From a virus, in the UHGV virus genome UHGV-0045956: a DNA stretch of 32,333 nucleotides; one strand, given 5' to 3'. The position numbers and the translations under genes were made by a program. This document shows, piece by piece, positions 4,155 through 28,435 of this stretch (position 1 is its first letter; the number at the start of each line of letters is the position of its first letter). The notes beneath the pieces are model-generated. The model was not told the origin of the DNA. It did not search any database and was given only the letters and a program-made list of their open reading frames with translations.

Positions 4155-4592
4155 TCGTGTTTCCGCTTCGCCGGAGCGCCTTTTCGCGCCATGTGATGAG
4201 TTCGGTCAGACTCATGGGATACAGTTCTGATGGCGGCCAGTGAAATATCACTGCCACATCCGCCATCAGGTCATCGACCGACAGATTTTTCGGGAACGTC
4301 ACTGCACCGAGTTCGGCGACAAAAAACCGACCACCTTACCGGCCAGCGCCACAAGGTCAGGCAGTTCCAGCGCGGCGACCTCCTGCTCGGTCAGCATCGG
4401 TGCCGTCATGCGCGGCAGCACTTTAATCAGTGCATCGACTTCGGAGTTTGCGACCGCAGCCAGACTGACACCGCGCAGCGTCCCGGCATTAGGTTTCATC
4501 AGCGTGACCTGTTCGATAACCTGTTCACCACGCTTGACCGGATTATCCAGGGTAATGACGTTTTCTGTTTCGGGAAAGCGGCTCGCAATAAC
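4147..4592 (-). CDS. E': gpE+E' programmed -1 frameshift product (partial)
   Basis: Manual translation of the -1 frame after the TTTTTTG site gives a ~58-codon extension ending at TAA 4149..4147, overlapping the T start, as for P2 E' / lambda G-T. Confidence 0.5.
4299..4592 (-). CDS. E: tail assembly chaperone gpE (5' end lost in N-gap)
   Basis: Frame is open from the gap edge (…VITLDNPVKRGEQVIEQVTL…GFLSPNSVQ*); lies between FII and T; contains the slippery heptamer. Confidence 0.6.
   Translation of the reverse strand, partial: VIASRFPETENVITLDNPVKRGEQVIEQVTLMKPNAGTLRGVSLAAVANSEVDALIKVLPRMTAPMLTEQEVAALELPDLVALAGKVVGFLSPNSVQ
4320..4326 (-). promoter_or_regulatory. -1 ribosomal frameshift slippery heptamer T_TTT_TTG
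   Basis: - strand reads GG-T TTT TTG with TTT/TTG in the E zero frame (…GFL…). Confidence 0.55.
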
Positions 4593-4699
4593 NNNNNNNN
4601 NNNNNNNNNNNNNNNNNNNNNNNNNNNNNNNNNNNNNNNNNNNNNNNNNNNNNNNNNNNNNNNNNNNNNNNNNNNNNNNNNNNNNNNNNNNNNNNNNNN
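4593..4699. other. assembly gap (107 N)
   Basis: Run of N inside the E coding region. Confidence 0.98.
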
Positions 4700-4725: not shown

Positions 4726-5244
4726 TCACAGGCCGATATTGCGGCGGTGTTGCTCCAGCCGGTCGACGCCGTTCACCTTCTCAATCATGTTGATGGTGTC
4801 GATTTCGACCAGCTCCTTACCGTCCATCGTCAGCCGGAAATAGGTGCAGACCACGGAGATTTTCGACTCGGTGTCTTCTCCCTGTTTACCCTCGCCAGTG
4901 TCGATTTCTTTCTGACGTCCACGCATGACCACCTCGACGGCCACCGTTTCGCCGGTATCGTCACGCTGGTAAGAGCCTGCAAAACGAATCGGGACGGCAT
5001 CCACGCCGGTTGCGGCGTAAAGCTCCCAGATAACCGAATCCGGGAAACCACCGAGCGACCACTCCATTGACAGCGCATCGTCATCAAGGCCGAGGTCTAC
5101 CGGTGCGCTGCCGTTCATCCCCGCACCGCGATAGTTTTCGAGCTTACGGGTCAGTTTTGGCAGCGTGACGGACTTTGCAACGCCCTGATAGCTGTAGCCG
5201 TTCAGAAAGACGTTCATTAACTTGAGTTTGCGCGGCATTGCCAT
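4726..5244 (-). CDS. FII: tail tube protein gpFII
   Basis: 172 aa as in P2 FII; immediately downstream of FI. Confidence 0.88.
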   Translation of the reverse strand: MAMPRKLKLMNVFLNGYSYQGVAKSVTLPKLTRKLENYRGAGMNGSAPVDLGLDDDALSMEWSLGGFPDSVIWELYAATGVDAVPIRFAGSYQRDDTGETVAVEVVMRGRQKEIDTGEGKQGEDTESKISVVCTYFRLTMDGKELVEIDTINMIEKVNGVDRLEQHRRNIGL

Positions 5245-5256
5245 CGGTCAGGCTCC

Positions 5257-6447
5257 TTAATTGCTGTTAACCGAAGTGACCAGATTTGCCAGGTATTTAT
5301 CGGTAATACGCTGGCGCAGGGTCAGGTTTTCGAGAGGAGGCACCGGTGTATAGTCGTAGTCGATATACAGTTTTCCGGCCTTGAGGGTTTCCGCATCGTT
5401 GGATTCTTCGCTGAACCAGCAGGTCGCATCCACGATATAGCCGTTTGTTTTCAGCTCACGGAATTTGGCATTGATGCCGTCAACGATGTCGCGAATCAGC
5501 GTTGCGGTGATGGGCTTGTCCACCGCCCACATGTGCGCCTCAGCCATCGTGTCGGCCATCACCTGCGCGGTGCGGGTGTAGTTTTCAAAGAGGAACAGCG
5601 GGTCATCAGAGCAGGTACGGTTACCCCAGAATCGGAAACCGTCGCGGCGAATCAGCGTAGTGACGCCTGACTCGTTAAGCAGGTCAGCATCGGTGCCGGA
5701 CTCCTGCAAATCCCAGAATACAGATGCGCTGATGCCGGTAACACCGTTTACCCCGACGTTGGACAGCGTTTTATGCCAGCCCTGCTCCTGGTCGATTCTG
5801 GCACGCAGACCCAGCGCACGGGCGGTGGCATACGCGGTGGCGGTGGTACTGGTGACCGTATCCCATGCGAGGAAATCCGGCCAGATGACCATCAGCTCAC
5901 GCTGGCTGAAATTCTGGCGATAGGCTTTCACCTCGGCAATGGTCTTACAGCCCCATGCGCTGATATATCCGAAAGCGCGCAGCTTCTGACAGACGGATGC
6001 CAGTGCAACAGCCACCTCTTTGGTATCCAGTCCCGGCACACCGAGAATACGCGGTTTAACACCGGTTACCGACTCCGCCGCCAGCAGGGCTTTCAGTCCG
6101 GTGTACTGACCGTTTTCGTCGGTGGTGCCGATGATATTGGAAACGGTCTGCGCAAGTTTCGTTTCCTCGTCGTCGCCGGTGCCGTCTTCCACGCGCACAA
6201 CAACGGTGACCGGTTTTGACTGGTCAGCGATGGCCTGTAACGACGCCGCCAGCGTGCCTTTTTTACCGGCCTTTGCAATTGCGCTCTGCACATTGGTAAT
6301 CAGCACCGGTTTATTGAGGGGGAAGGTTTCCGCATCCGCATCGCTGGCCGTGCAGACCATGCCGACAATGGCCGTGGATACGGTGGAAATGACGCGGGTG
6401 CCGTCGTTAATCTCCAGCACCTGCACGCCGTGATGATAGTCACTCAT
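5257..6447 (-). CDS. FI: contractile tail sheath protein gpFI
   Basis: 396 aa as in P2 FI; GGAG ribosome-binding site before ATG 6447. Confidence 0.9.
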   Translation of the reverse strand: MSDYHHGVQVLEINDGTRVISTVSTAIVGMVCTASDADAETFPLNKPVLITNVQSAIAKAGKKGTLAASLQAIADQSKPVTVVVRVEDGTGDDEETKLAQTVSNIIGTTDENGQYTGLKALLAAESVTGVKPRILGVPGLDTKEVAVALASVCQKLRAFGYISAWGCKTIAEVKAYRQNFSQRELMVIWPDFLAWDTVTSTTATAYATARALGLRARIDQEQGWHKTLSNVGVNGVTGISASVFWDLQESGTDADLLNESGVTTLIRRDGFRFWGNRTCSDDPLFLFENYTRTAQVMADTMAEAHMWAVDKPITATLIRDIVDGINAKFRELKTNGYIVDATCWFSEESNDAETLKAGKLYIDYDYTPVPPLENLTLRQRITDKYLANLVTSVNSN

Positions 6448-6552
6448 CCGTTTAACTCCGTGGTTAATGGGTGCAACTATTTTCTGTTGTGCAGAGCATG
6501 AGACGCTATTTGACCTGGCTGGTCAGTGGATGAAACAACAGATAAAGAAAAA

Positions 6553-6630
6553 NNNNNNNNNNNNNNNNNNNNNNNNNNNNNNNNNNNNNNNNNNNNNNNN
6601 NNNNNNNNNNNNNNNNNNNNNNNNNNNNNN
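6553..6630. other. assembly gap (78 N) followed by A22 and C17 homopolymers
   Basis: N run, then aaaaaaaaaaaaaaaaaaaaaaggggccgccccccccccccccccc at 6631..6677. Confidence 0.95.
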
Positions 6631-6752
6631 AAAAAAAAAAAAAAAAAAAAAAGGGGCCGCCCCCCCCCCCCCCCCCAGTCCTGATTTGTACACACTCATT
6701 TTCCGACTGACAATTTACATAGCCAAAACGCTATCAAATCTGACAGTCTGCT

Positions 6753-6781
6753 TTGAGCGAATAGCAGACATTCATTAATAT
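6753..6781 (+). promoter_or_regulatory. candidate sigma70 promoter TTGAGC-N17-TAATAT for the cargo gene
   Basis: -35-like 6753..6758, 17-nt spacer, -10-like 6776..6781, ~70 nt upstream of ATG 6854; overlapped by dyad GTCTGC-N12-GCAGAC (6746..6769). Confidence 0.3.
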
Positions 6782-6853
6782 GTTTGTTAGGCTAACTTTA
6801 TATGATAATTACTGAAATTGACCTTAGTTTGAGAATTGCATTAGGGGAATAAA

Positions 6854-7960
6854 ATGGATGTCATTGAACTTAGAGAGTTACTTATCAAGTATAATGGTCT
6901 TCAAAATACTGACGAAGTCTATACGTTTTATTATGATGAAACGAATAATATTCGAAAACTATATTTAAAAGATTCTGGTTTTAATGTTGTAAAGGCGGAT
7001 AATTTCATCCTTGCAGGAATACTACACAAAGGGTTAAGCACTGACAGCGATTATTCAACCCTATTTAAAAAACTTAATCTTCAAAAAAGTGCCCGCGAGT
7101 TAAAACTCAGTCATATTGCCAAGGGTAGTTTTTTGGACATGCTTAAATCTGATAAGCTTTTAATTATTCTAAACTGGCTTATTGAAAACAATTTCCACAT
7201 CCATTATTTTAATCTTAATATCACATACTGGTCTATTATTGACATTATTGATTCTATTATTGGAGAGCTACATAATCCTTTTTATATCATGAACCACATG
7301 TCACTTAAGAGCGATTTTTATGAGCTTGCCAATAGCAATTCCGATGTTTTCCTGAATGCTCTACATAAATTTAACTACCCCGATATTCCAGAAGAAAAAG
7401 TTTATGAGTTTTGCCTCTGGCTTATCGATTTTACATGCATGCACAGTTGTATGCTACCAGATTTTCGAGCACACGCACTCAAAAATTTGGTTAAAGAATC
7501 TCTAAAAATCGAAGAACTACCGTTCATATCGGGATTTCATGGTCGAAAACTGATCGATAGCTTTATGGTATTTTATTTAAGAAACTTGTATCTATTTAAA
7601 AATTCCATTCACATATTTGATGAAGAAAATAGCATTCAAGATGAAGTTAAAAACTTCCCGTTAACTGAAAATGGCATACCAATACAGAATCATGAATTCG
7701 TTAAATCCCACAACTCAGAGGCTGTCCAACTATCTGATGTTATCGCAGGCTTTTTGGGTAAGTATTTTTCTTACTTAAAAGATGTAAATGACGAGCAATT
7801 AGCGATTGATAAGTCAGCCTTAACGAGCAAGCAATTTAAGACCCTTTCTGCGTTAAAACACATTATTGATATTTCTGATGATGTTAGCAGAGGATTTTTT
7901 AATGAAGTTAGCAGCGAGGGAGAGCGACGAAGAAACAACCGTTTTTTACATGGTGTATAA
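6854..7960 (+). CDS. hypothetical protein, AT-rich cargo gene at the Z/fun position (candidate defence/exclusion gene)
   Basis: 368-aa ORF, AGGGGA ribosome-binding site, strongly AT-rich, opposite strand to the flanking late genes; no transmembrane segment; DE near N-terminus (YYDETNN) and Q-x-x-D near C-terminus (VQLSDVIAG). Confidence 0.75.
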   Translation: MDVIELRELLIKYNGLQNTDEVYTFYYDETNNIRKLYLKDSGFNVVKADNFILAGILHKGLSTDSDYSTLFKKLNLQKSARELKLSHIAKGSFLDMLKSDKLLIILNWLIENNFHIHYFNLNITYWSIIDIIDSIIGELHNPFYIMNHMSLKSDFYELANSNSDVFLNALHKFNYPDIPEEKVYEFCLWLIDFTCMHSCMLPDFRAHALKNLVKESLKIEELPFISGFHGRKLIDSFMVFYLRNLYLFKNSIHIFDEENSIQDEVKNFPLTENGIPIQNHEFVKSHNSEAVQLSDVIAGFLGKYFSYLKDVNDEQLAIDKSALTSKQFKTLSALKHIIDISDDVSRGFFNEVSSEGERRRNNRFLHGV

Positions 7961-7984
7961 TCGTAAGGGGTAAATTCTGCTTTT

Positions 7985-8024
7985 GGCACAGAGCGAACTG
8001 TCAGATTAGTTTTTACTCTGTGCC
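7985..8024. terminator. hairpin between convergent cargo gene and G (9-bp stem ggcacagag/ctctgtgcc)
   Basis: Perfect 9-bp inverted repeat with 22-nt loop, preceded by TTTT; sits between two convergent stop codons. Confidence 0.35.
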
Positions 8025-8059
8025 ATAGATGTATAAACTCACATCAGAGCTTATACAAT

Positions 8060-8587
8060 TTATTGCGGTATTTCCGGCCATTCAGGATTTGCAAGATCCA
8101 CACGACTGACCAGAACGCTGTAGCGTTCCCATGTTTCCAGTCGGCTGCGCTCCTCCTCTGTTGCCATATTCAGCCTGACAGCGCGCTCCAGCGGCAAAAT
8201 CACGGATTCAGCATCTGCAAGAAGTCTGGCTTTCCGAATTTCTGCCTGCTGCTGCAATTCCTCTGCCGTATAAATGCGTTTAGTCACTGTGCCGTCCTTA
8301 AACATCCAGTTCCCTGAAATGTCCGCCCGTCGGTTAGCAGTAATATCCGGCACTTCAACAACACTTAATCCATCCGGTCTGATAGCTGTCACATCCTTTT
8401 CCACATAGCGGATGATATTATCTTTGTCGTACGCTATTTTTATCGTGTCATCAGCAAAATACTTTTGTTCTTCGTACCAGTTCTTACCATCTTCTGTAAA
8501 AAACCAGACAACATCAAACTCCTTTGTCAATTGATATTGTTCAACCGTTTTTGGATTACCTGCCGTTATATTTATCAAATGCTGCAT
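8060..8587 (-). CDS. G: tail fibre assembly protein gpG
   Basis: 175 aa as in P2 G; directly downstream of H. Confidence 0.85.
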
Positions 8588-8590
8588 AAA

Positions 8591-10801
8591 TTATACCTGC
8601 GCCACGTTGTACCATGTCCCGTTAATGTATTTCTGAACCGGTCTGTAATATACGCCACCAATGTTATCGGCAGAGTTTGAGCCTGTATCCTGAACAATAA
8701 TGCCGGTATATACGCACCCGGACGGTGCCTGATGTGTCCATGTCATGCCATTGTTCGCAGGTTTGTATGTGGCCGCACCACCAAGCCGGAGATCCCTGAC
8801 ATAGCGGGAGTCAAAATTGCTGAAATTTGATGGTATCACCTGCCCGGTAACCCGTAGTGCATCAGACTTAAGCGTCATCAGATCTTTTGTTGTGCTGCCA
8901 GACCTGATGCGCCATTTAAAATATTCATTGCCATTATCACCAGTTTCAAACCACATGTATGAGTCAGAATCAGCATCTGAATCATTTTTAAATCCAATTT
9001 TCGCCCAGTCAGTGTTTCTTTCCCAAATCAGGAAGGCATCATTGATAAATTTTATGCTGCCTGACATGCTTCCGCCTGATAATGCCAGAGCAAGAATATC
9101 CGCAGGTGTTGGCTTTCGTGATGTGGTATAAAACTCTGACCAGTCAGCCTCAAATCCATACCCATCACGTGCCGACCTGTAAAAAATCCCCCTGTTTTTA
9201 TAATCCACAAGAAACTGCATTGCCGGACAACTTCCCTCACCCGTGTAAAAATGCAGCACCATTTTTGATGCTCCGCCATCCTGTGCACAATAAGCACCAC
9301 TATCCCAGTTCCATCCTACCGCTTTATTATTTGCAACCGTATTTCCTGTTTTCCCTAATGCAAAAGCCGGTTGCTTATTTTTCGTATTGTAGTCGCGTCG
9401 CCAGCCCGGCGCATAATCAGCTCCGTGATTGATATACGTGAATTGCGCACTGGTGGTACCACCACCGCTTGATGTACTCGGAGTGGTCACACGAATGGTC
9501 ATTGCAGCTTTAACGCCCATAACCTCAATCACGCAACCTGCAAGATGAATAGTCCCACAGTCAGTATCGGTAATAATTTTGTTATTACCGTATGACCAGG
9601 AACACTTGCACATCCAGTAGGGATGATTAAAGGCTCCCTGAGACTCTAGCCAGTCAATAAACTGAGCGGTTGTCCAGTTTCCGGCTTCAGTGCTCAAAGC
9701 ACCGCTATAAGCACGACAGGCACCGATATTTTTCGTGAAAGTATCCTTTCCCGGAATATCCGCACCGTTCTGATCTTTCTGAAGACGTTTTTCAGCATTG
9801 TCATAGGCAGACTTCACCGCTTTTGGTGTTGCAGCCAGCGTTTCAGAATCGCTGTTGATGGCGCTACTCAGCTGAACAAGGCCTTTTCGTACTGTGGTGG
9901 CGTCCTGTGCAGTGTATTTCCCGTTAGCAAGGTCATATGCTGCCTTTACCGCCTTTGGCGTTGCCGCAAGCGTTTCAGAATCACTGTTGGTGGCGCTACT
10001 GAGCTGAACAAGGCCTTTTCGCGTTGTGGTGGCGTCCTGTGCAGTGTATTTCCCGTTAGCAAGGTCATATGCTGCCTTTACCGCTTTCGGCGTTGCGGCG
10101 AGCGTTTCAGACGTGCTGTTGGTGGCACTACTGAGCTGGACAAGGCCTTTTCGCGCTATGGTGGCGTCCTGTGCGGTATATTTCCCGTTAGCAAGGTCAT
10201 ACGCGGCCTTTACCGCTTTCGGCGTTGCGGCCAGTGTTTCAGACGTGCTGTTGGTCGCACTGCTTAACTGAGTAAAACCTTTTGCGGTCAGCGAGGCGTC
10301 AGGGTGACGTCGTGACTGTTCATGTTCTGCAATTTTGTCATCAACGTAATCCTGCGTTGCTATCACCGTTGTGGTGTCAATGGTCAGCTCCACTGAGGCC
10401 ACACTGCTGACGATGATGACCATGCGGCAGGTCTGCGAACGCCCTGAGCCTTCGGCAAGGGCTGGCTTATAACTTTCGGCCATGTTCGCCACGGCAATTA
10501 GCGTTCCCGCATCATCGTACAGGCCAAGTTCACGCATCCAGAAACCGCCCACCTCCGGCGGAATAACCAGCTCTGCGATAATATAATTACTGTTTCGTTT
10601 GTCCTGGCTGATTTTGTTCAGCGCATGTCGCCAGACTTCGTGGATAAGCCCGGTCTGTCCGGCATCCGGGACAGGCAATTTACCACCGCCATCCCCGACG
10701 GCCATCGTGGTAATGTTGACCTTCCGCCCTCCCGGTGCGGTTGCCGCTGCCAGCTTTGCTGCACCGGCAGTGGTGATAACGGTTCTGAATTTTGTGCTCA
10801 T
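8591..10801 (-). CDS. H: tail fibre protein gpH (mosaic)
   Basis: 736 aa; N-terminus MSTKFRTVITTAGAAKLAAATAP… and C-terminus …KYINGTWYNVAQV typical of P2 H; internal 44-aa repeats; divergent Cys-containing middle section. Confidence 0.9.
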   Translation of the reverse strand: MSTKFRTVITTAGAAKLAAATAPGGRKVNITTMAVGDGGGKLPVPDAGQTGLIHEVWRHALNKISQDKRNSNYIIAELVIPPEVGGFWMRELGLYDDAGTLIAVANMAESYKPALAEGSGRSQTCRMVIIVSSVASVELTIDTTTVIATQDYVDDKIAEHEQSRRHPDASLTAKGFTQLSSATNSTSETLAATPKAVKAAYDLANGKYTAQDATIARKGLVQLSSATNSTSETLAATPKAVKAAYDLANGKYTAQDATTTRKGLVQLSSATNSDSETLAATPKAVKAAYDLANGKYTAQDATTVRKGLVQLSSAINSDSETLAATPKAVKSAYDNAEKRLQKDQNGADIPGKDTFTKNIGACRAYSGALSTEAGNWTTAQFIDWLESQGAFNHPYWMCKCSWSYGNNKIITDTDCGTIHLAGCVIEVMGVKAAMTIRVTTPSTSSGGGTTSAQFTYINHGADYAPGWRRDYNTKNKQPAFALGKTGNTVANNKAVGWNWDSGAYCAQDGGASKMVLHFYTGEGSCPAMQFLVDYKNRGIFYRSARDGYGFEADWSEFYTTSRKPTPADILALALSGGSMSGSIKFINDAFLIWERNTDWAKIGFKNDSDADSDSYMWFETGDNGNEYFKWRIRSGSTTKDLMTLKSDALRVTGQVIPSNFSNFDSRYVRDLRLGGAATYKPANNGMTWTHQAPSGCVYTGIIVQDTGSNSADNIGGVYYRPVQKYINGTWYNVAQV
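9795..10290. repeat. in-frame tandem repeats, 132-bp period, ~3.5 copies, inside H
   Basis: gtggtggcgtcctgtg… recurs at 9893, 10025 and 10157; encodes repeated LSSATNSTSETLAATPKAVKAAYDLANGKYTAQDAT. Confidence 0.85.
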
Positions 10802-10811
10802 TATTCCTCAC

Positions 10812-11342
10812 TTATCCGGGGTAAACCGTAATTACATCGCCGTCGTAAGCCACACCACCGGCGAACAGGTAGCCGGGAATATCCCGGGTAATGTTCAGGC
10901 CAATAAGATGACGGCTTGCAGGTTTGGCATCAGCAATAAGCCGTTCCATTTCCTGATACATTGCCTCTGTGATGCCGCTTTCCAGTACGCCAATATCAAG
11001 CCGGAAGGTGCCTGGCGGGTCACTGGTTTCCCACCACTCCGTCACGTTGATGAGATAGCCCAGCGGCTCCACCACACGCCGGATTGCACCTATAGTGCCT
11101 TTATGACAGTGGATGAAATAGGCATCGCGAATAACGGCGCGTTTTGTCGCTTCCGGCCACTTTTCATCCCACCTGTCGACCGAAAACGCCCACGCCAGCC
11201 ACGGCAGTAGATTTGCCGGACAGGTGTCCGGGTTCCACAGCTCACGAATACTGACCGGCGTTTTTTCAATTTCCGCACAGGCTTTTGCGGCGGCGACTTC
11301 AAGCGGTGATGAGCCGGTCGGCAGCAGGCGCGAATCACTCAT
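10812..11342 (-). CDS. I: baseplate assembly protein gpI
   Basis: 176 aa as in P2 I; overlaps J stop. Confidence 0.85.
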   Translation of the reverse strand: MSDSRLLPTGSSPLEVAAAKACAEIEKTPVSIRELWNPDTCPANLLPWLAWAFSVDRWDEKWPEATKRAVIRDAYFIHCHKGTIGAIRRVVEPLGYLINVTEWWETSDPPGTFRLDIGVLESGITEAMYQEMERLIADAKPASRHLIGLNITRDIPGYLFAGGVAYDGDVITVYPG

Positions 11343-12243
11343 CCGAGCCTCCGGTCACGACGCGGTATTCGGTACAGAAAGACGCCTGCGTACTGTTGAG
11401 CACGATGTCGGCCAGCGGTGCAGCCAGTTCGACACGCTGCACGCCTTCCACATGCAAAGCGGCATAAATGGCAGATAGTCGGATGTCGCGCCCCAGCCGG
11501 TGCTGTGCCGTGATATACGCTTCCAGTTTTTTCACGGCGGCAGCGCGAATGGGTTCGCTTTCGGGGCCAGGGTAAAGGTAAAGCGTGGCATTTATCTGGT
11601 ATTCAACGATGGCGGCAGACTGCACGGTCACACGGTCGGCCACCGGTCTGACGTCCTCGCCATTCAGGGCGTTGCGCACCACAGCCAGCAGGTCTTCAGA
11701 TGCCACACCGTTATTTTCACGTGACAGCACAGAGATGGTGACACAGGCCGGAGACGGACTGGTGACAGAGATATCCGCGACACGCCCGTCGGCACTGCGA
11801 CCATGATACTGATAGGCTCCCACCGACCCGGCGACGCTTAAGCCTTCAAACGCCTGCTGAATACGCAGACGATAATCGGTGTCAGACTCCATCACTGCCG
11901 GTGTCGGCGGGATGGTCGAATCATCTGCCGGGGTGATAGTCAGGCGCGTGGTGTTGTAATTGGCACCAATCACATCAAGGTCATTACCGGCGGCACAGGC
12001 CAGCATCACCGCCCGCGCAGCCTCATTCACACGCTGACGCCAGATAAGCTCACGATAAGCATTTTCCTCCAGCAGTTTGACGAGAGGCTCAGATTCCAGC
12101 GTCAGGGTACGGGCGACCGCCTCCTGCTGGTCTTCCGGGTAAAGGGAAATCAGTGTCGCCTTGCGTTCAGCGAGAATGGTTTCAAAGTCCAGCTCCTCGA
12201 CCACATCCGGTGCGGGTAGCTGGTTCAGGTCGATAATCGGCAT
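11335..12243 (-). CDS. J: baseplate protein gpJ
   Basis: 302 aa as in P2 J. Confidence 0.85.
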   Translation of the reverse strand: MPIIDLNQLPAPDVVEELDFETILAERKATLISLYPEDQQEAVARTLTLESEPLVKLLEENAYRELIWRQRVNEAARAVMLACAAGNDLDVIGANYNTTRLTITPADDSTIPPTPAVMESDTDYRLRIQQAFEGLSVAGSVGAYQYHGRSADGRVADISVTSPSPACVTISVLSRENNGVASEDLLAVVRNALNGEDVRPVADRVTVQSAAIVEYQINATLYLYPGPESEPIRAAAVKKLEAYITAQHRLGRDIRLSAIYAALHVEGVQRVELAAPLADIVLNSTQASFCTEYRVVTGGSDE

Positions 12244-12595: not shown

Positions 12596-13227
12596 AAAGG
12601 ACTCCCGGTTGTGCCGCCGCTGTCGCCGGGGTGTTTATGGGTATGCAGTACCTTACCGTTTGATGAGAGTTCACCGCCGGTATGTTCAATGTTGCCGCGC
12701 ATCGTCCCGCCCTTCTGCACTTCCAGCGTGCCGGTAATCAGCCTGTTGGTGCAGACCACCTCCGGTGTGTCCAGGGTGACGCGGGTTGATGCTTTCACCA
12801 TGACCACCGGCACCGTGGCAGTAACAGAATCAGAGGCCGTCACGCTGGCCGTTTTAATTCCGCTTACCGTAAGTGCACTGGTTTCGGGTTCATATTCAAT
12901 CACCGCCCCGTCAGGGAAACGGATATGCAGGGCATCAGCCGACGCAGACGGCGCAGGGTTATCGCCGGAATAAATCCCCGGCAGAACAAACGCCGTGTCA
13001 AGTTCACCGCCCACGGCCAGAATCAGCACCTGCTCCCCCACGGAAGGTGCCCACCATGTGCGCGAACGCCCGGCACGACAGGTCAGCCACTGAAGCCAGT
13101 CGGTGCACATGCCGCCGGTCTGCACACGGCAGCGACCGGCGTTAAGGTCGGTTTCGACGACAAGGCCGGTGCGAATCATGTTGCGCAGTGCGCGCGCGAG
13201 TTCCTGAATATTTGCGAGAGTGTTCAT
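12592..13227 (-). CDS. V: baseplate spike protein gpV
   Basis: 211 aa as in P2 V; overlaps W start. Confidence 0.85.
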   Translation of the reverse strand: MNTLANIQELARALRNMIRTGLVVETDLNAGRCRVQTGGMCTDWLQWLTCRAGRSRTWWAPSVGEQVLILAVGGELDTAFVLPGIYSGDNPAPSASADALHIRFPDGAVIEYEPETSALTVSGIKTASVTASDSVTATVPVVMVKASTRVTLDTPEVVCTNRLITGTLEVQKGGTMRGNIEHTGGELSSNGKVLHTHKHPGDSGGTTGSPL

Positions 13228-13293
13228 AACGGGAAGGATGCCGCGGGGTCATACCGGCGGCAATGTGACGATGAGGTGTCAGGAATGGCACAA

Positions 13294-15166: not shown

Positions 15167-15664
15167 TTAAGCCGGTACGCCGCCGGCGGTACGCCAGACG
15201 GTGACCAGTTTTTCCAGTGAATGCTCACGCTGACCGTAACCGGCACCCGGCAGGGACGCCCAGATATTGCGACAGCGTGAAATGGCGCGCTCAATGCGTC
15301 CCGCCCGGATGTCATCCAGTGCACCACGTTCGCGGATCAACTGAATGGCGAGCCTGTCCTGTGACAACGGACTGAAATCCGGCAGGGCAAGCTGTTTGCG
15401 GTAGTGCGGCCAGAACAGGTAAAGCTGCTGATAGCGACCGGAGGCCGTGGATTTTTCACCGCGACGGTTAAACACCTTCGCCGGTCGGCCATGCGCGAAC
15501 GGGTGGTCACTGTAGTCGGTGAATATTTCCGGCTTCCCGTCCAGTCCGGTGACTATCACGTCATAGCCCCGGTTTTTCGTCAGCGGATGATTCGCCGTCC
15601 CTTCGGACACTGCCAGCATGTCGAGAAAGGCGGCGATATTCTGATGCGTGTTAATTACCGGCAT
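15167..15664 (-). CDS. K: endolysin gpK
   Basis: 165 aa as in P2 K; follows the holin. Confidence 0.85.
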   Translation of the reverse strand: MPVINTHQNIAAFLDMLAVSEGTANHPLTKNRGYDVIVTGLDGKPEIFTDYSDHPFAHGRPAKVFNRRGEKSTASGRYQQLYLFWPHYRKQLALPDFSPLSQDRLAIQLIRERGALDDIRAGRIERAISRCRNIWASLPGAGYGQREHSLEKLVTVWRTAGGVPA

Positions 15665-15945
15665 TACTGTTTCCCCCTGCCCTTAAAGCGGCGCTGAATG
15701 GCAATCTCAATCACCTGATAACCGGCGATACCCAGCATGGAGCCGATGCCGCACACCGCAGGCAGTGACAGGTCAGGAAACTGCACCAGAACAACACCGG
15801 CAACCATCGAGACAAAACCACCGAGCAACATGCGCCCGATAAACAGACGCGGGGTGATGGGTTCACCACCGGCAAGCACCTTGCCGACAACAATCAGCAC
15901 CCCAATCATGAAAAGCGACAGGACGCTTTTTTCTTCTGCTGTCAT
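15664..15945 (-). CDS. Y: holin gpY
   Basis: 93 aa with hydrophobic helices and charged C-terminus; P2 Y length. Confidence 0.8.
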   Translation of the reverse strand: MTAEEKSVLSLFMIGVLIVVGKVLAGGEPITPRLFIGRMLLGGFVSMVAGVVLVQFPDLSLPAVCGIGSMLGIAGYQVIEIAIQRRFKGRGKQ

Positions 15946-15948
15946 GCG

Positions 15949-16152
15949 TTACTCCCACAGATTGACAGTTTCAGCCACGGGCGCGGTCTGAACGTCGGGC
16001 AGTTCGACGGCGGTGCCGTGTGGCAGCACCGCCCCCAGTTCAGCCAGTCCCGGATTTGCGGCGAGCACGGCCTCGACCACGCCCTCAGTGCGCCCGTAAT
16101 AGCGGACACAAATGGCGTCGAGCGTGTCGCCCTGTAGCGCAAAGGTCTTCAT
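15949..16152 (-). CDS. X: tail protein gpX
   Basis: Trimmed to internal ATG 16152 (MKTFALQGDT…), 67 aa as in P2 X; start overlaps L stop (TGATG). Confidence 0.7.
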   Translation of the reverse strand: MKTFALQGDTLDAICVRYYGRTEGVVEAVLAANPGLAELGAVLPHGTAVELPDVQTAPVAETVNLWE

Positions 16153-22478: not shown

Positions 22479-22501
22479 CGCCGCCTGCGGGCGGCTTTTT
22501 T
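22479..22501 (+). terminator. rho-independent terminator after Q
   Basis: gccgcc-tgcg-ggcggc stem-loop followed by TTTTTT directly after the Q stop. Confidence 0.6.
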
Positions 22502-22666
22502 ACACCCCGTCATCACGGCCTCACACGCTCACCACCGCACAAAACACCCCGCAGACACACCAACGCCCCGGCAGGCCGACTAAATGCCATCACGACGCGC
22601 TCAGACGCAAAAAAACTGTCACTACCACGCCGTTACGTTGGCCCCATAAAAAGTGGCCCACTCCAG

Positions 22667-23668
22667 TTATAATAATTTGTCCAGCCTAGCTGAAACAATA
22701 CCTAGAACAACTGTTGAAACTATATTTATCACCACTCTTAAAATACTCTTCTTTCGCTTCTTACTATATTCATCATACAACCTCTCATCACCCTTATTTA
22801 ATACAATGTACGATGCTGGAGTATAACCATCAATTAATCTCTCTAGGCCTTCACCTAAATGCTCCGCTAACAATGGGATAATAGAAAACGCACCAAGAAA
22901 GAGCATTAAAAATTTTACTAACCTTTCTTTATCACCAATATCAATATATTCACCAACATTGTACAGTGCATAACTTAAAATCAATATAGAAAAAGAAAAC
23001 CGCATAATCAGTGGAATTAAATACGATATCCTTTGAGCTTGCTGTATCAATGGTATTTTGTTTGTAACTCTTTGACATCCTTCAACCCATTCTTTAAATG
23101 CTTCGATAAAACCTCTAGCCACTACATAATCAGCATATTCAACAACTATTTCTGCTGAACTGGTGAGCATGAATGCAACAAAACGCCCCCTAATGAAAGG
23201 TGGTGCATCTTCTTCCATTTCTTTCTGCATAGCAATTCTTGATGCTAATTTAACAGTAACTTCATAGTGGTTAGGTAATGATGCCCCTGTCGATAAAATT
23301 GCAAAGTTATATTTTAAAATTACACTAATTGTTGGACTACTTCCCGCACTACTCGACATTGCAAACTTATCAAAAGAGGTAAACTGTTCCTTTCTATCTT
23401 TTGAATGTAAAATAGTTACCGTTTCATTTTTCGATATAATATTATGAACATCACACAATTGATTTATTTTTTGATGAACGCTTCTTATCTCATCGATATT
23501 TATAAGTAAATTCTCAGAGGTTCTCTGCCTTATTGTTTCTGTTGTTCCCGTTATATGTTGATAAATTTGCTGATAAATACGAATGCTAGTATTAATATCC
23601 CGAGAAGCAGGTAACCCACTATTAACCCCATTATTTTTTTCATTTGACTCATCAATTATAATACTCAT
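22667..23668 (-). CDS. hypothetical membrane protein, AT-rich cargo between cos and Q
   Basis: 333-aa ORF; ~200-aa soluble N-terminal part then three predicted transmembrane helices; strongly AT-rich versus backbone. Confidence 0.7.
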   Translation of the reverse strand: MSIIIDESNEKNNGVNSGLPASRDINTSIRIYQQIYQHITGTTETIRQRTSENLLINIDEIRSVHQKINQLCDVHNIISKNETVTILHSKDRKEQFTSFDKFAMSSSAGSSPTISVILKYNFAILSTGASLPNHYEVTVKLASRIAMQKEMEEDAPPFIRGRFVAFMLTSSAEIVVEYADYVVARGFIEAFKEWVEGCQRVTNKIPLIQQAQRISYLIPLIMRFSFSILILSYALYNVGEYIDIGDKERLVKFLMLFLGAFSIIPLLAEHLGEGLERLIDGYTPASYIVLNKGDERLYDEYSKKRKKSILRVVINIVSTVVLGIVSARLDKLL

Positions 23669-23912
23669 TTTATTTCCTATAAAAACTTAACCAGCAAATT
23701 AAACAAAAAGAACACAAGGTTATTATTTAGCGTGCAACAACACGATTGCACAACCAAATGCCACGTGTACGAATCTAACCATTCTCTTATATTAAATCAA
23801 GTCAATACAACCTAATAGACACATTTTTTATCGCAGTTATACACTTGGTTAACAATATGCGGATAGTTACTCAAATCAAATTACATATATGACAAAATGA
23901 ACAATTGCGCGC

Positions 23913-23931
23913 AGTGCTTTCCCCGCCTCGC
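23913..23931 (-). other. cos: cos site, 19-nt cohesive end GGCGAGGCGGGGAAAGCAC
   Basis: + strand gtgctttccccgcctcgcc is the reverse complement of the P2 cohesive-end sequence as I recall it; GC-rich island between AT-rich genes. Confidence 0.7.
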
Positions 23932-24036
23932 CCGCCCGCTTCATGGGGCGGTTTTAATGTAGGTGCATGAACACTCCAAGAGCGCGCCAGCATTGACGAT
24001 AACTGACAATAAAAACGGCCTCTGACATATGCACAT

Positions 24037-24954
24037 TCATTCACAATCATGCATATTAAAGAACGGGTATGGATAGCGTCGTAAGATCTCATCTTCACTG
24101 TACCCCAAATAATCAGACATGAGTTTAATCGAAGGTGGCGTTACAGGTTTCATAAGCAGAGGAAAACGTTCGTGCAAATCATTGAATTTAAGAATCCCTG
24201 AATCTTCTTGCATTACTCTTTTGTCAAACAGCGATTCAGCATACAATGGCAACTCTTTGAGCAACAGATTAATATCAAGCAACAAAACATCTATCATAAT
24301 CATTATTTGCTCAGTAATATCAATGTAATAAGCCGCCTTATTACTACCTATAGCATTAACAATATCATCATTTTTAAAACGCATCGTCGGCAAAGGTGAA
24401 CCTGTTGATTCAATAATCATTCCTCTATAGGTGTCATCAAAATCATTCCTAACATTTAATGCAGCCAATAGGCTGTTAAACCTTCTTGCTATATCACTAA
24501 CAACAAAAGCATCCCCCCAGTTAGTAGTCTTTGCTGTCTCTCTATTATTCTCTACTCCCTTTTGACTCAATATACAGGCCAACTCACTTAAATCTGATGA
24601 TAGGGGAGCACCAGAAAAAACCACGACAGGAAAAGCTAAAGCCCTCTCGATAGGATTTTCACTTATACTTACCCCACCATAATAATTCCCTTTAATTTGC
24701 AACAACGTTGTCATTGCAGAAAAGTAGTCATAAATACATTTATTTACAACGCTTACCTTTCTTCTTTGTGCTTTAAGGTACTCCTGCCGATAAAACAACC
24801 TAGTTGCAATAAAGTAACTCAGCACAGAAGAGATAATTGGTAATACTACAGGCAGCACATAATCTTTTATGACATTAGTATTATTAACGCCTTTAATTGC
24901 ATCAATAATATCCTCAACCTGAAGCTGCCCTATTATATAGCTCGTATAATCCAT
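24037..24954 (-). CDS. hypothetical membrane-anchored protein, AT-rich cargo at the tin/old position
   Basis: 305-aa ORF; single N-terminal transmembrane helix (YVLPVVLPIISSVLSYFIATRLF); ATG 2 nt after the upstream lipoprotein stop. Confidence 0.7.
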   Translation of the reverse strand: MDYTSYIIGQLQVEDIIDAIKGVNNTNVIKDYVLPVVLPIISSVLSYFIATRLFYRQEYLKAQRRKVSVVNKCIYDYFSAMTTLLQIKGNYYGGVSISENPIERALAFPVVVFSGAPLSSDLSELACILSQKGVENNRETAKTTNWGDAFVVSDIARRFNSLLAALNVRNDFDDTYRGMIIESTGSPLPTMRFKNDDIVNAIGSNKAAYYIDITEQIMIMIDVLLLDINLLLKELPLYAESLFDKRVMQEDSGILKFNDLHERFPLLMKPVTPPSIKLMSDYLGYSEDEILRRYPYPFFNMHDCE

Positions 24955-24956
24955 TA

Positions 24957-25163
24957 TCAGAAAGCCGTTATTGTTCTATTACAACGTTCAGTAGCAACTT
25001 TCACAGCATCACGCCCATCACTTAATTTAGGGTAAGAACCAATCTCTATAAAATATTGGACACCTCTTTCAATACAACTCTCAACTTCTTTTTTATTACT
25101 CTCATTACAACCAACCAGCAACGCCCCAAAAAAAGCCATAACACAAATCAGTTTTCTTTTCAT
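24957..25163 (-). CDS. small lipoprotein (candidate superinfection-exclusion factor)
   Basis: ATG 25163 with AAGGTG ribosome-binding site; MKRKLICVMAFFGALLVGC signal peptide and lipobox; ~50-aa mature part with Cys residues; AT-rich. Confidence 0.6.
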   Translation of the reverse strand: MKRKLICVMAFFGALLVGCNESNKKEVESCIERGVQYFIEIGSYPKLSDGRDAVKVATERCNRTITAF

Positions 25164-25301
25164 TTTAAACACCTTAACAAACACGATACAAAAACGTATA
25201 TTTATATTATCTTTCAGAATAAGTAAATCCCAGCTATTCATCAACTCTCGGTGTCAATCTGATGGGTATCTAACGCCTCGCTAAGCTCGTTGTTCAACCC
25301 C

Positions 25302-25428
25302 NNNNNNNNNNNNNNNNNNNNNNNNNNNNNNNNNNNNNNNNNNNNNNNNNNNNNNNNNNNNNNNNNNNNNNNNNNNNNNNNNNNNNNNNNNNNNNNNNNN
25401 NNNNNNNNNNNNNNNNNNNNNNNNNNNN
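25302..25428. other. assembly gap (127 N) followed by ~31-nt poly-G
   Basis: N run, then gggggggggtgggggggggggggggggggggg at 25429..25460. Confidence 0.95.
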
Positions 25429-25464
25429 GGGGGGGGGTGGGGGGGGGGGGGGGGGGGGGGTTTA

Positions 25465-25710
25465 CTACGGCCTGCGTGGTGGTTGTTTTGGCATGTTAGC
25501 TGGCCGAGATGTCTCAATTTTCTGTCTACTGATATCGTTAAACCGTCTGTAATTATCCCGGACTATTTCGGCACACCCGACCAGCTCATCGGGCGTCAGA
25601 TTTTCGTTGACCATAATCCGCTGTAAACGCTGAACAATAGCCATCAGCTTGATATTTTTAGTTTTATGGTGCGGTATCTCGCCTGGTATTCTGTGCATTA
25701 TCCAAGCCAC
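25465..25710 (-). CDS. hypothetical protein (3' end next to gap and poly-G, boundary unreliable)
   Basis: 81-aa ORF downstream of the ASCH-like gene; C-terminus abuts the homopolymer and gap. Confidence 0.35.
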   Translation of the reverse strand: MAWIMHRIPGEIPHHKTKNIKLMAIVQRLQRIMVNENLTPDELVGCAEIVRDNYRRFNDISRQKIETSRPANMPKQPPRRP

Positions 25711-26153
25711 CCGTTTTGCTGTGCACGCTCCATCTGTTCATCTGAATAGTTCCATGCTCCATCCGTGGCAACCATTGCCCCGCCAGACATCCCCGTCTCT
25801 GGTTCATACATAACAGCAAGGCCGAGCTGATGCATAATTTCATGATTAATTCTGAATACCAGACCACGCTCACTAAGTTCTTTCCAGTTCACAATCTCAT
25901 ATGCGCCTGTATTAAGCAGCTCAATACTTAGCAAGACATAATCTTCCAGCCAGTCTGACAGGTCAGTAACATCTGTTATCCGGGCTTCAACCTTTCGCCC
26001 CGTATACACACCCTGCACCCATTCATGCAAAATCAACGTGTCCCCGCGCTCATAATTACGGTCATTTTTCCGAAACTCTGCGCGTTTCTTTCCTTCCAGC
26101 ACAAGGTCGAAATATTTTGCGTGCAGCTTTACCTCGTGAATTTTAGCCATCAT
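25698..26153 (-). CDS. ASCH/DUF3850-like protein with C-terminal HExxH motif
   Basis: MAKIHEVKLHAKYFDLVLEGKKRAEFRKNDRNYERGDTLILHEW resembles the ASCH-like DUF3850 N-terminus; HEIMH near C-terminus; ATGATGA overlap with the A stop. Confidence 0.6.
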   Translation of the reverse strand: MMAKIHEVKLHAKYFDLVLEGKKRAEFRKNDRNYERGDTLILHEWVQGVYTGRKVEARITDVTDLSDWLEDYVLLSIELLNTGAYEIVNWKELSERGLVFRINHEIMHQLGLAVMYEPETGMSGGAMVATDGAWNYSDEQMERAQQNGWLG

Positions 26154-28435
26154 GTCCACTCCATTACTGTTGAGAATCCCGGCCACTCATCAGCGACCGA
26201 ATACGTGAATTTTTTCCCGTCATAATTTACGGTTGCCCCACGCGCCAGCGCCTCAAGCTCCCATCGCTGCGGCCTGATACCATTCTGAGCAAGGTCAACG
26301 CGGATACGGGTAATTTGCATTCTTTCCGACCGGGTCAGTCTGGCCGATGGTGCAATTTCATGTGGTTTTAACGGGCTTCCGTTTCTTTGCTGACGGTTTG
26401 GCGTTCTCAGGTCGTGTTTTAATGCGCCCCTGAGCGCCCTCACGACCTCCGGGTCACTCCATTCGATAACACCGTCATTAACCAGATTAAGCACTGCTGC
26501 GGCGTGCTCAGAAGGTGTGGGAGCCGGTAACGAAGTATCACCACCGGTGAGTTTTCCACAGTTATTGACAGGACTCCGAGGCGCGGCGATGCCGCTTTTT
26601 AAAGTCAAAGGCTCAACGACCGGAACTTTCGGCACAATGCGCCAGTCCGTCGTTCTGGTGATATGAATATGACGCGCGCCGAGATGCGGCGCGTAAATGC
26701 CGACCACTCTCTCGACTTCTTCCTCGTACTCGTTAACTTCATCCGACGGGCTACGGGCGACTCTGACAGTCTGGCAATCGCGCGGAACATTTGCCCCACC
26801 CTGCGCACTGATATACAACGCAAAATCGCCACTGTCTGCGGCAGCGCGTGCAGCCTCGACGCGTTCGTCAAACTCATCAGCAATGCTGACGCCGCGAGGC
26901 AATTTGCGTAGTTCACGGTAAGCCCCCATTGTCGGCAGACCAACCGTTTTAAATTGCGGGATGCGCCACGTTGACGCCCATGCAGTAACAGCCGCGGCAG
27001 TATCTTTCAGAGGTCTGCCGGTATCGTTATCGAGCTGACCATCCAGTGCATAGCCGTCGATATTTTTTGAAATGTATTTCGCGATATACCCCGCAGCACC
27101 GCCCCGGTTAAGGTGTTTCGCCTGAAAACGGTTTCGCTCGGCTCCTCTTTCGTCGCCATCCTCTTTGAGCGCGTAGCGACGCATGGTTTCGATAATCTGG
27201 TTACGCTGACGTGGATTACAAAAAAGCATCATATGCCAGTGCGGCGTTCCGTCGTGGTGTGGCTCGACGACACGCAAACCGTAGACCTGTAAATCATTAT
27301 CCTTGAATGCCGTGCGCATCAGGCTCCAGATGCGGCAGAGATAACGCTGCGCATCCTTTGGATTAAATGCCTCATCGTTCCAGCCGTGATTTAGCTGGAC
27401 GGTTTTACTTTCGCCTTTTCCGACCTGACGTGTCGGGTGATACTTTGACGGCGCGGTCAGCGTGATAAACATCCCCACATCACCCTCTGCGGCGGCGTAA
27501 CGCTCAATACCGGCGATGGTGTTCATCAGCTCCATCCGGCGAATTTCTGGATTAGAAATACTGCCCATCACCTTACTGATAAGGTCGATGCGCTCGCCGG
27601 TTTCCCTGTTTTCAAGGTCACACGATTTAAGAAATTCCAGATTTGCCTGGCGGCGCGCACGCACATCACGAATGGCGTGTTTACTGGCATAAGGAGAACG
27701 GTCTTTATTGACCTCCCCGACAGCTATCAGTAACGCTTCATGCCAGCGCATACGCTGGCCTTTAAGCTGATGAGTCCACCACTCATCGTTAAACAGACGG
27801 GCAATGGCAGAATATGCCTGCCTCGTGGTCATCTGCCCTTTACGGTATTTTTTCCAGTAGAGAGGGGAAATATTGAAAGCACGTGCAGCGCCAGCAACAT
27901 GACCATAGAGGTGAGCCTGCGCCTCATCCGTAAACAGCGATTCTTTTTCGCCATGCGCATCCACCCAGGCATCGCTGAGTTCCTCATACATCATGAAAAG
28001 CTGCGATGAGATACGGGCAGCAAACTTTTTCAGCTCCTTGTCATTCATTCCCGGCAGGCGCGCATAGTGGTCACGCTCTGCCAGAAACAGCAACGACGCG
28101 TCGGTGTTCATTTCATGGCGCTGATTCACACGCTCAATGCGCGGCCATAAACGACGCTGAAAAGTGGATGTGAGGAAATAAAACCCGTGTACCGGGCTTT
28201 TATTGCGCCGGATGTAGTCATAGCGTGAAGTAAACAGCGAGCGCAAAAAGTAAGGCAGGCGGTTAATCGTGGATAAAACACCTTGCACCTGACGCATCTC
28301 GTCACGTGTAAGGGGTCTTTCGCGCCCGACGGCCTCGCGTGGCGCGTTCCATGCATAAGCACCGGTAAACGCCTTACCGGTGCCTGCAGCAAATGCTGAA
28401 GGAGGGACAAAACGCCCGGAGGCTTTAACGGCCAT
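26150..28435 (-). CDS. A: replication initiation endonuclease gpA
   Basis: Trimmed to ATG 28435 (MAVKASGRF…), 761 aa as in P2 A; contains the conserved …HHDGTPHWHMMLF… and …AGYIAKYISKNIDG… regions I associate with rolling-circle initiators. Confidence 0.88.
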   Translation of the reverse strand: MAVKASGRFVPPSAFAAGTGKAFTGAYAWNAPREAVGRERPLTRDEMRQVQGVLSTINRLPYFLRSLFTSRYDYIRRNKSPVHGFYFLTSTFQRRLWPRIERVNQRHEMNTDASLLFLAERDHYARLPGMNDKELKKFAARISSQLFMMYEELSDAWVDAHGEKESLFTDEAQAHLYGHVAGAARAFNISPLYWKKYRKGQMTTRQAYSAIARLFNDEWWTHQLKGQRMRWHEALLIAVGEVNKDRSPYASKHAIRDVRARRQANLEFLKSCDLENRETGERIDLISKVMGSISNPEIRRMELMNTIAGIERYAAAEGDVGMFITLTAPSKYHPTRQVGKGESKTVQLNHGWNDEAFNPKDAQRYLCRIWSLMRTAFKDNDLQVYGLRVVEPHHDGTPHWHMMLFCNPRQRNQIIETMRRYALKEDGDERGAERNRFQAKHLNRGGAAGYIAKYISKNIDGYALDGQLDNDTGRPLKDTAAAVTAWASTWRIPQFKTVGLPTMGAYRELRKLPRGVSIADEFDERVEAARAAADSGDFALYISAQGGANVPRDCQTVRVARSPSDEVNEYEEEVERVVGIYAPHLGARHIHITRTTDWRIVPKVPVVEPLTLKSGIAAPRSPVNNCGKLTGGDTSLPAPTPSEHAAAVLNLVNDGVIEWSDPEVVRALRGALKHDLRTPNRQQRNGSPLKPHEIAPSARLTRSERMQITRIRVDLAQNGIRPQRWELEALARGATVNYDGKKFTYSVADEWPGFSTVMEWT

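Follow-up and report, generated by a model that had tools for sequence, protein, structure and literature searches.

A long, stand-alone DUF3800 protein with a predicted RNase-H-like core in the Z/fun slot of a P2-like Escherichia coli prophage

Introduction

The fun(Z) gene of phage P2, located between the genes FI and G, is a classical exclusion gene acting against phage T5. The tail-gene locus is an accessory and defence hotspot in which 16% of the defence systems detected in P2 are located (PMC13586616), and the recombination process behind the swapping of defence cargo in the P2 and P4 hotspots has been stated to await elucidation (PMC13586616). Single-gene defences of P2-like prophages, namely the DUF4238 protein and old/tin, have been shown experimentally (Rousset et al. 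2022, PMC9122126). Here we describe the cargo gene found at the Z/fun position in a 32,333-nucleotide stretch of DNA (UHGV virus genome UHGV-0045956; hereafter, the window), which is a P2-like prophage of Escherichia coli. This open reading frame (ORF), at 6854..7960 (+; stop codon included), starts with ATG and encodes a protein of 368 amino acids (aa) of the DUF3800 family.

Typical members of the DUF3800 family are about 210-260 aa long. The motifs that define them are D-E in the N-terminal part and Q-x-x-D in the C-terminal part (PMC7736814). Described relatives include the effectors of type VII retrons, the TPR-DUF3800 proteins of Cas12a2/Cas12a3 loci, and Csx32 of Cas13 CASK loci. The protein encoded in the window has in common with these retron- and Cas-type proteins the domain and the RNase-H-like fold predicted by others, but it is long and stands alone, with no reverse transcriptase (RT), TPR, Cas, or kinase partner. 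Additionally, it retains the Q of the Q-x-x-D motif, which the retron-type proteins lack. With the PADLOC family PDC-S51 it shares both the protein family and the single-gene architecture. While the PDC families were proposed from their embedding in BREX, DISARM, type I restriction-modification (R-M), or Hma loci (bioRxiv 10.1101/2024.01.29.577857), the cargo gene of the window resides in a phage hotspot and not within a BREX, DISARM, or R-M locus. The validated DUF4238 and old/tin defences follow the same logic as that considered here, in which a lone cargo gene protects the lysogen, but they occupy another hotspot (primase-portal, near cos) and represent other protein families.

Family Membership and Predicted Fold of the Cargo Protein

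The original prediction, made from the DNA letters and translated ORFs, described a single AT-rich plus-strand gene between minus-strand late operons and noted that its product loosely recalls the DUF3800 signature. Both observations stand. The guanine-cytosine (GC) content of the ORF is 0.332, as compared to 0.567 for FI (tail sheath; 5257..6447, -), 0.451 for G (tail-fibre assembly; 8060..8587, -), and 0.512 for the whole window; the two backbone flanks were assigned from their ORFs and from the annotation of near-identical records. The motifs quoted in the prediction are present as FYYDETNN (residues 25-32) and VQLSDVIAG (residues 291-299), and their residues D28, E29, Q292, and D295 are invariant in an alignment of 54 sequences with identities down to 35%, as are H117, D130, H253, D256, and E258.

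The searches of Pfam and of defence-system hidden Markov models (HMMs) that had been suggested as a check both returned matches. The Pfam model PF12686 (DUF3800) scored 29.7 bits (E 1.2e-6), above its gathering score of 21, and was matched over positions 2-147 of 149, with these positions stretched over residues 25-302 (278 residues) by a helical insertion. The PADLOC PDC-S51 model was matched along its full length (E 8.9e-106, 351.9 bits; residues 2-366 vs. positions 4-370 of 376), in agreement with a single-gene system that has no conserved neighbour gene. The RefSeq label in the E. coli records, "DUF3800 domain-containing protein", is consistent with these results (the identical protein WP_000382497.1 was checked in strain MS 16-3). 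At the sequence level, the DUF3800 identity of the cargo protein is confirmed. Instead of a compact domain of about 150 positions, the protein represents a long sub-family and is an atypical member. Its PHROG match, PHROG 15126, has no assigned function, and NCBIfam gave no match. A search of Rfam, including 11 DUF3800-associated RNA motifs, returned only noise for 6400-8200 (E <= 10). There is no RT gene, and neither the adjacent non-coding RNA nor the RT expected of a type VII retron was found; the cargo-specific DNA outside the gene is limited to 84 nt on its 5' side and about 20 nt on its 3' side.

The AlphaFold model obtained with the 54-sequence alignment is confident (predicted local distance difference test, pLDDT, 93.9; predicted template modelling score, pTM, 0.91). 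It contains core strands at residues 23-29, 36-39, 51-59, 115-121, and 252-256, to which helices of a large insertion (about 123-250) and of the C-terminal part (313-366) are added. D28 and E29 lie at the end of strand beta-1, while Q292 and D295 lie in the helix 289-310. The alpha/beta core can be superimposed on RNase HII or H2A, and the closest folds are those of RNase H2 and H3 rather than of transposases. As a modelling result, the predicted catalytic core of the cargo protein is shown to have a type-2 RNase-H-like fold, which agrees with published analyses of other DUF3800 proteins, described there as "RNase H2-like" or as an "RNase H fold with a catalytic rearrangement". Identity to the type 2 RNases H (RNase HII, H2A, HIII) is only 6-12%, and, unlike in these enzymes, more than half of the cargo protein is extra helical structure. 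Pfam gave no RNase HII/HIII match and the sequence-profile search of PDB no match at E <= 10, so that the protein does not combine membership of an RNase H sequence family with a complete DEDD tetrad. The proposal to examine the fold by structure prediction and Foldseek was thus borne out as to the model and its core but not as to the Foldseek comparison: nothing significant was found in PDB (E 0.5), nor in BFVD except for a 242-aa phage DUF3800 protein (E 5e-3).

The Z/fun Slot and Its Occupants

The 1.4-kb stretch containing the gene (6631-8059) is 99.5% identical at the DNA level to phage fiAA91-ss, where the gene is annotated as "orf20, hypothetical protein", and six complete E. coli chromosomes match it at 99.5-99.9% identity (99.9% in the case of E. 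coli MS 16-3). An alignment of the slot with P2, Wphi, P2-EC58, P24C9, 10W, 11W, P2_AC1, and P22H1 indicates that the backbone is kept up to about position 6768 on the left side of the slot and again from about 7980 onwards on its right side, with unrelated DNA in between. In P2 and Wphi this DNA encodes the 299-aa Z/fun protein, on the same strand as the late genes; in P2-EC58, a 232-aa ORF; and in other P2-like phages, a HAD phosphatase together with a NUDIX hydrolase, or a 181-aa ORF. Fun(Z) of P2 and the other occupants have the slot and its bounding arms in common with the DUF3800 cargo, but Fun(Z) is an unrelated protein and its gene has the opposite orientation. Of 5426 complete E. coli genomes, 618 have the left flank of the slot (about 100 bp) and only 6 have the DUF3800 gene; therefore, this gene is a rare occupant of a common slot. 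These counts, together with the unrelated genes found in the slot of other P2-like phages, substantiate the earlier view that the gene is exchangeable cargo.

The Arms of the Slot

The slot is bounded by two inverted copies of one element of about 30-50 nt, which has a stem of 7 bp (GTCYGCT/AGCRGAC) and a 10-nt loop of either "L" type (TTCGCTCAA-like) or "R" type (TCTGGCACAG-like), often followed by TGTCAGATT. The left arm (6727..6772, -; nhmmer with a phage-arm profile, E 9.5e-12) has the stem 6746-6752 with 6763-6769, the 10-nt loop, and then TGTCAGATT on the minus strand. In the right arm (7971..8024, +; nhmmer E 1.2e-12), the dyad 7975-7981 with 7992-7998 overlaps a stable hairpin formed by 7985-7993 and 8016-8024. 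Together they form a 32-nt inverted repeat, I1, in which 6737-6768 and 7976-8007 are 81% complementary. The arms are kept in all P2-like phages that we examined, whatever the cargo. The inverted repeats of the slot were reportedly first described in 2004 by Nilsson and co-workers, who are said to have proposed site-specific recombination. The GenBank record AJ512683 annotates the arms as inverted repeats, with the left-arm element labelled "right inverted repeat". Covariation in the arm stem was not significant (80.8% of cells paired; score 0.110 vs. 0.095 after shuffling, with 88 of 500 shuffles attaining the observed score), and at one stem pair half of the copies have a C-A mismatch; given the covariation result, we claim a conserved dyad sequence only, and no selected RNA or DNA structure.

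A profile built only from the arms of phages devoid of the DUF3800 gene was used to search for the element outside P2-like phages. It matched right after the stop codon of the DUF3800 gene in Alteromonas (E 4.5e-8) and Vibrio (E 2.5e-3), with weaker matches in Shewanella and Providencia (E about 0.26-0.27), and at several gene boundaries of an integrative and conjugative element (ICE) of Pectobacterium (E 2e-8 and 4e-8), where arm-like elements adjoin both of its DUF3800 genes. On a Klebsiella IncF plasmid, three consecutive modules are each bracketed by an inverted pair of arms: an AAA-ATPase and HNH pair by 2200(-)/4442(+), the DUF3800 gene alone by 5920(-)/7118(+), and a TPR gene by 7181(-)/9487(+). 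The unit comprising hairpin, 5' untranslated region, gene, and hairpin is colinear between this plasmid and the window. The back-to-back R/L junction was found on 241 plasmids, and on an IncFIA/IncR plasmid an arm pair brackets a NYN-domain module with an adjoining HNH endonuclease gene. Inverted pairs of the element surround other modules, of an accessory or defence-like kind, on plasmids of Klebsiella and E. coli, in the Pectobacterium ICE, and in a Vibrio island. Copies of the element in the analysed records are located at 2172-2200, 4442-4465, 5892-5920, 7118-7147, and 9487-9511 of L102, at 8903-8952, 13210-13236, and 16183-16232 of L010 (the Pectobacterium ICE), at 11141-11185 of L005, at 8463-8489 and 11119-11145 of L012, and at 2559-2590, 5002-5031, and 5048-5075 of L103. 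The element as a universal companion of the DUF3800 family was considered and rejected: in about 1.03 Mb covering 86 homologue loci, it was found only with the closest relatives and in Alteromonas macleodii.

This pattern leads us to propose, tentatively, that the Z/fun arms might serve as boundaries or crossover points in a network of cassette exchange that extends beyond the phage backbone, with the DUF3800 gene as one hairpin-to-hairpin module of it. We hold this to be possible but somewhat doubtful. That the DUF3800 enzymes themselves act on the arm hairpins is a speculative extension, to which we give very little credence.

Distribution, Selection, and Genomic Company of Homologues

A word-indexed search yielded 551 homologues, and an exhaustive profile search 1132 cluster representatives at E <= 1e-3 (556 at E <= 1e-30); among the best matches listed of these representatives, most are about 350-400 aa long, each with one near-full-length match. 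A pattern-seeded scan of one genome per species in 185,579 species confirmed 275 relatives with a rare and patchy occurrence in alpha-, beta-, gamma-, delta-, and epsilon-proteobacteria, cyanobacteria, Bacteroidota, Chloroflexi, and clostridia. Relatives are encoded by 147 plasmids, including 65 conjugative ones, and in the phage collection the gene was found only in fiAA91-ss and one metagenomic contig. Homologues of 80-88% aa identity occur in Pectobacterium, Cronobacter, Klebsiella, Providencia, Vibrio, Shewanella, and Agarivorans, and their spread over such genera suggests a recent inter-order transfer. Against these homologues, the ratio of nonsynonymous to synonymous substitution rates (dN/dS) is 0.15-0.22. 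Judged by these sequence comparisons, the gene is under purifying selection and was horizontally acquired.

All seven homologue loci that were inspected are defence islands or mobile elements. The Alteromonas homologue is accompanied by DUF4365, GmrSD, and Shedu; that of Shewanella adjoins BrxR, Wadjet, and NERD; that of Vibrio lies in an island that has an integrase as well as PLD and methyltransferase genes, with PD-T7-1 directly upstream; and that of Cycloclasticus is located between a CBASS pair (CD-NTase/Cap15) and TIR genes. A Sphingomonas ICE carries DUF4365, NucS-like, HEPN-MNT, and McrA-HNH genes besides its homologue, the Pectobacterium ICE has a relaxase, integrases, Shedu, and a second, shorter DUF3800 gene, and on the Klebsiella IncF plasmid the homologue adjoins the AAA-ATPase/HNH pair and the TPR protein gene. 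No partner gene is conserved across the inspected loci, and the Shewanella and Vibrio homologues have upstream neighbours that are not related to each other.

Two of these loci have further features. In the Pectobacterium ICE (L010), the short DUF3800 gene (244 aa; 15290..16024, -) lies beside an arm-like element, and a gene encoding a 200-aa tyrosine recombinase (11164..11766, -) directly follows the long DUF3800 gene. In Cycloclasticus (L013), the homologue is flanked by direct repeats at about 9930-10000 and 11135-11200, which end in GCCGCAGAGCGCGGCGTTAT and TCCGCAGAGCGCGGCGTTAGGC and, by their sequence, look like integron attC core sites (GTTRRRY). Because of these attC-like repeats and of the position between the CBASS pair and the TIR genes, the Cycloclasticus homologue may be a cassette of a chromosomal integron.

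Transcription Signals

The cargo gene is preceded by a Shine-Dalgarno-like AGGGGA (6843..6848, +), read from the sequence 5 nt 5' of the ATG. This block is largely kept 5' of the Vibrio, Shewanella, and Pectobacterium homologues and appears as AGGGAA on the Klebsiella plasmid. The original prediction attributed to the gene its own promoter-like element and a downstream hairpin, and neither attribution holds in full. The element TTGAGC-N17-TAATAT (6753..6781, +) agrees with the consensus at 8 of 12 positions only, and its -35 hexamer falls in the hairpin loop of the conserved left arm, with the -10 hexamer in cargo-specific DNA, so it cannot be taken as the gene's own; a promoter scanner with a threshold of 9/12 listed nothing upstream of the ORF. 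The downstream hairpin, formed by GGCACAGAG (7985-7993) and CTCTGTGCC (8016-8024), does exist and is very stable (-33.5 kcal/mol; z -5.0 on the plus and -6.2 on the minus strand), but it lies within the right arm, which is conserved whatever the cargo, and does not belong to the gene. No U tract is associated with it.

In an intact relative, the only predicted terminator of the FI-G interval acts on the minus strand and is located beyond the cargo (L002 3988-4006, -; corresponding to about 6553-6676 of the window), and the hairpin that directly follows G lacks a U tract. For these two reasons, late transcription from G probably reads through the slot, in the antisense direction for the DUF3800 gene and in the sense direction for cargo of the Z/fun type. 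As indicated by the alignment with fiAA91-ss and MS 16-3, the window itself has at this site 78 N (6553-6630) followed by A22 and a C-rich homopolymer (6631-6676), which replace the minus-strand intrinsic terminator GGCGGGCGAATTGCCCGCC-TTTTCTTT of its relatives; position 6631 is the first base after the N run. Two further N runs occur in the window, at 4593-4699 and 25302-25428, and the latter is bordered by a G-rich homopolymer (25429-25460), in the same way as A22 and the C-rich tract border the run at 6553-6630. We take the N runs and homopolymers to be artefacts of the record or masking, and not biology.

Other Features of the Window

A second AT-rich island (22500-25500; GC 0.32-0.41) lies in the main defence hotspot of P2, with the portal-side genes on one side and the large replication gene on the other. 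The two sizeable ORFs of this island, of 333 aa (22667..23668, -) and 305 aa (24037..24954, -), have no match in Pfam or PADLOC, and this cargo is potentially more novel than the DUF3800 gene. At the edge of the island, before the large replication gene, there is a 162-aa ORF (25698..26186, -) with ASCH/DUF3850 and DUF7415 domains. The tail fibre gene H (8591..10801, -) encodes four tandem copies of a unit of about 44 aa (…KGLVQLSSATNSTSETLAATPKAVKAAYDLANGKYTAQDAT…). The H gene of fiAA91-ss is shorter by 132 bp (44 codons), which suggests, from the sequence comparison, that the repeat number in the tail fibre H varies.

Proposed Function and Alternative Explanations

Taken together, the fold and the genomic context make it moderately likely that the occupant of the Z/fun slot is a stand-alone nuclease expressed in the lysogen, with a predicted role in defence against other phages; the step from the fold to a nuclease and that from the context to defence are what we infer here. 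As the gene is transcribed against the late operons, its expression in the lysogen would depend on its own promoter. Its product would act alone, as a metal-dependent nuclease, on the nucleic acid of a superinfecting phage. Owing to the RNase-H-like fold, its most likely substrates would be RNA:DNA hybrids or structured intermediates of replication or transcription. Either the invader would be destroyed or the infected cell would be stopped. The helical additions may form a sensing or autoinhibitory part, and antisense late transcription during P2 lytic growth could damp the nuclease.

An anti-phage or exclusion function had been put forward as plausible in the original prediction, and it is now supported by association: the PDC-S51 match, the contexts of the homologues, and the literature on the hotspot. 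Several points weigh against it. The PDC set consists, according to its own authors, of "guilt-by-embedding" predictions (Payne et al., bioRxiv 10.1101/2024.01.29.577857), and our literature search returned no mention of PDC-S51 or WP_000382497 and no validated stand-alone DUF3800 defence. The association with defence islands and mobile elements is expected also of anti-defence, addiction, and mobility genes, and the promoter-like element has no more than the 8 consensus positions mentioned above.

The alternative that survives best, although we consider it rather unlikely, is that the protein is a nuclease of another benefit, such as anti-defence, exclusion of plasmids or satellites (e.g., P4), RNA processing, or a lysogenic conversion that does not concern phages. 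The cargo slots of P2-like phages are not reserved for defence, as they hold also cytolethal distending toxin genes and partition systems (PMC9122126), the HAD phosphatase and NUDIX genes are among the occupants of the Z/fun slot itself, and DUF3800 proteins are accessory genes of CRISPR and retron loci. The neighbours of the homologues are, however, predominantly recognised defence genes, and the family was flagged independently through its embedding in defence systems (bioRxiv 10.1101/2024.01.29.577857).

Less credible is a mobility enzyme, i.e., an RNase-H/DDE-like nuclease that acts on the flanking dyads as part of an insertion sequence-like unit or helps cassettes to move between hairpins. 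The position of the gene between 32-nt inverted repeats, the colinear hairpin-to-hairpin unit on the Klebsiella IncF plasmid, and the arm-like elements beside both DUF3800 genes of the Pectobacterium ICE would fit such an enzyme. Nevertheless, in all P2-like phages examined the arms enclose unrelated cargo, on plasmids they also enclose modules devoid of DUF3800, most of the 80 homologue loci have no arm element, and the fold is closest to RNase H2/H3 and not to transposases. The gene was also found in its six complete E. coli genomes always in the same chromosomal prophage context. Instead of terminal repeats of its own and an occurrence at several sites, as in the case of an insertion sequence or transposase, the gene has repeats that are the arms of the slot.

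A decaying passenger with no current function might be suspected from the rarity of the gene (6 of the 618 E. coli genomes that have the slot flank) and its foreign composition, but we find it scarcely tenable, as the ORF is undisrupted and shows 99.5-99.9% identity among independent strains and a phage isolate, dN/dS is low, and all family-invariant residues are retained. An allele of the T5-blocking fun(Z) gene of P2, raised in the original prediction on account of the same G-FI position, is ruled out as nearly as such a comparison allows, since the 299-aa P2/Wphi protein has no similarity to the cargo protein (BLASTP E = 1.0), contains no Pfam domain, and is encoded on the opposite strand.

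Implications

The predicted defence nuclease is only moderately new, as the RefSeq DUF3800 name, the listing of the family as a defence candidate, and the slot as a hotspot are already known. The part most worth following up is the cassette-boundary element. The shared dyad arms are concrete candidate crossover points for the exchange of defence cargo and, if the proposed network is real, they would explain the swapping of cargo in the P2 hotspots. DUF3800 proteins recur in immune contexts, namely in type VII retrons, Cas12a2/Cas12a3 loci, Cas13 kinase loci, and defence islands, with no member of known activity, and a stand-alone DUF3800 protein of an E. coli P2-like prophage is perhaps the most tractable member of the family for finding the substrate and the trigger.

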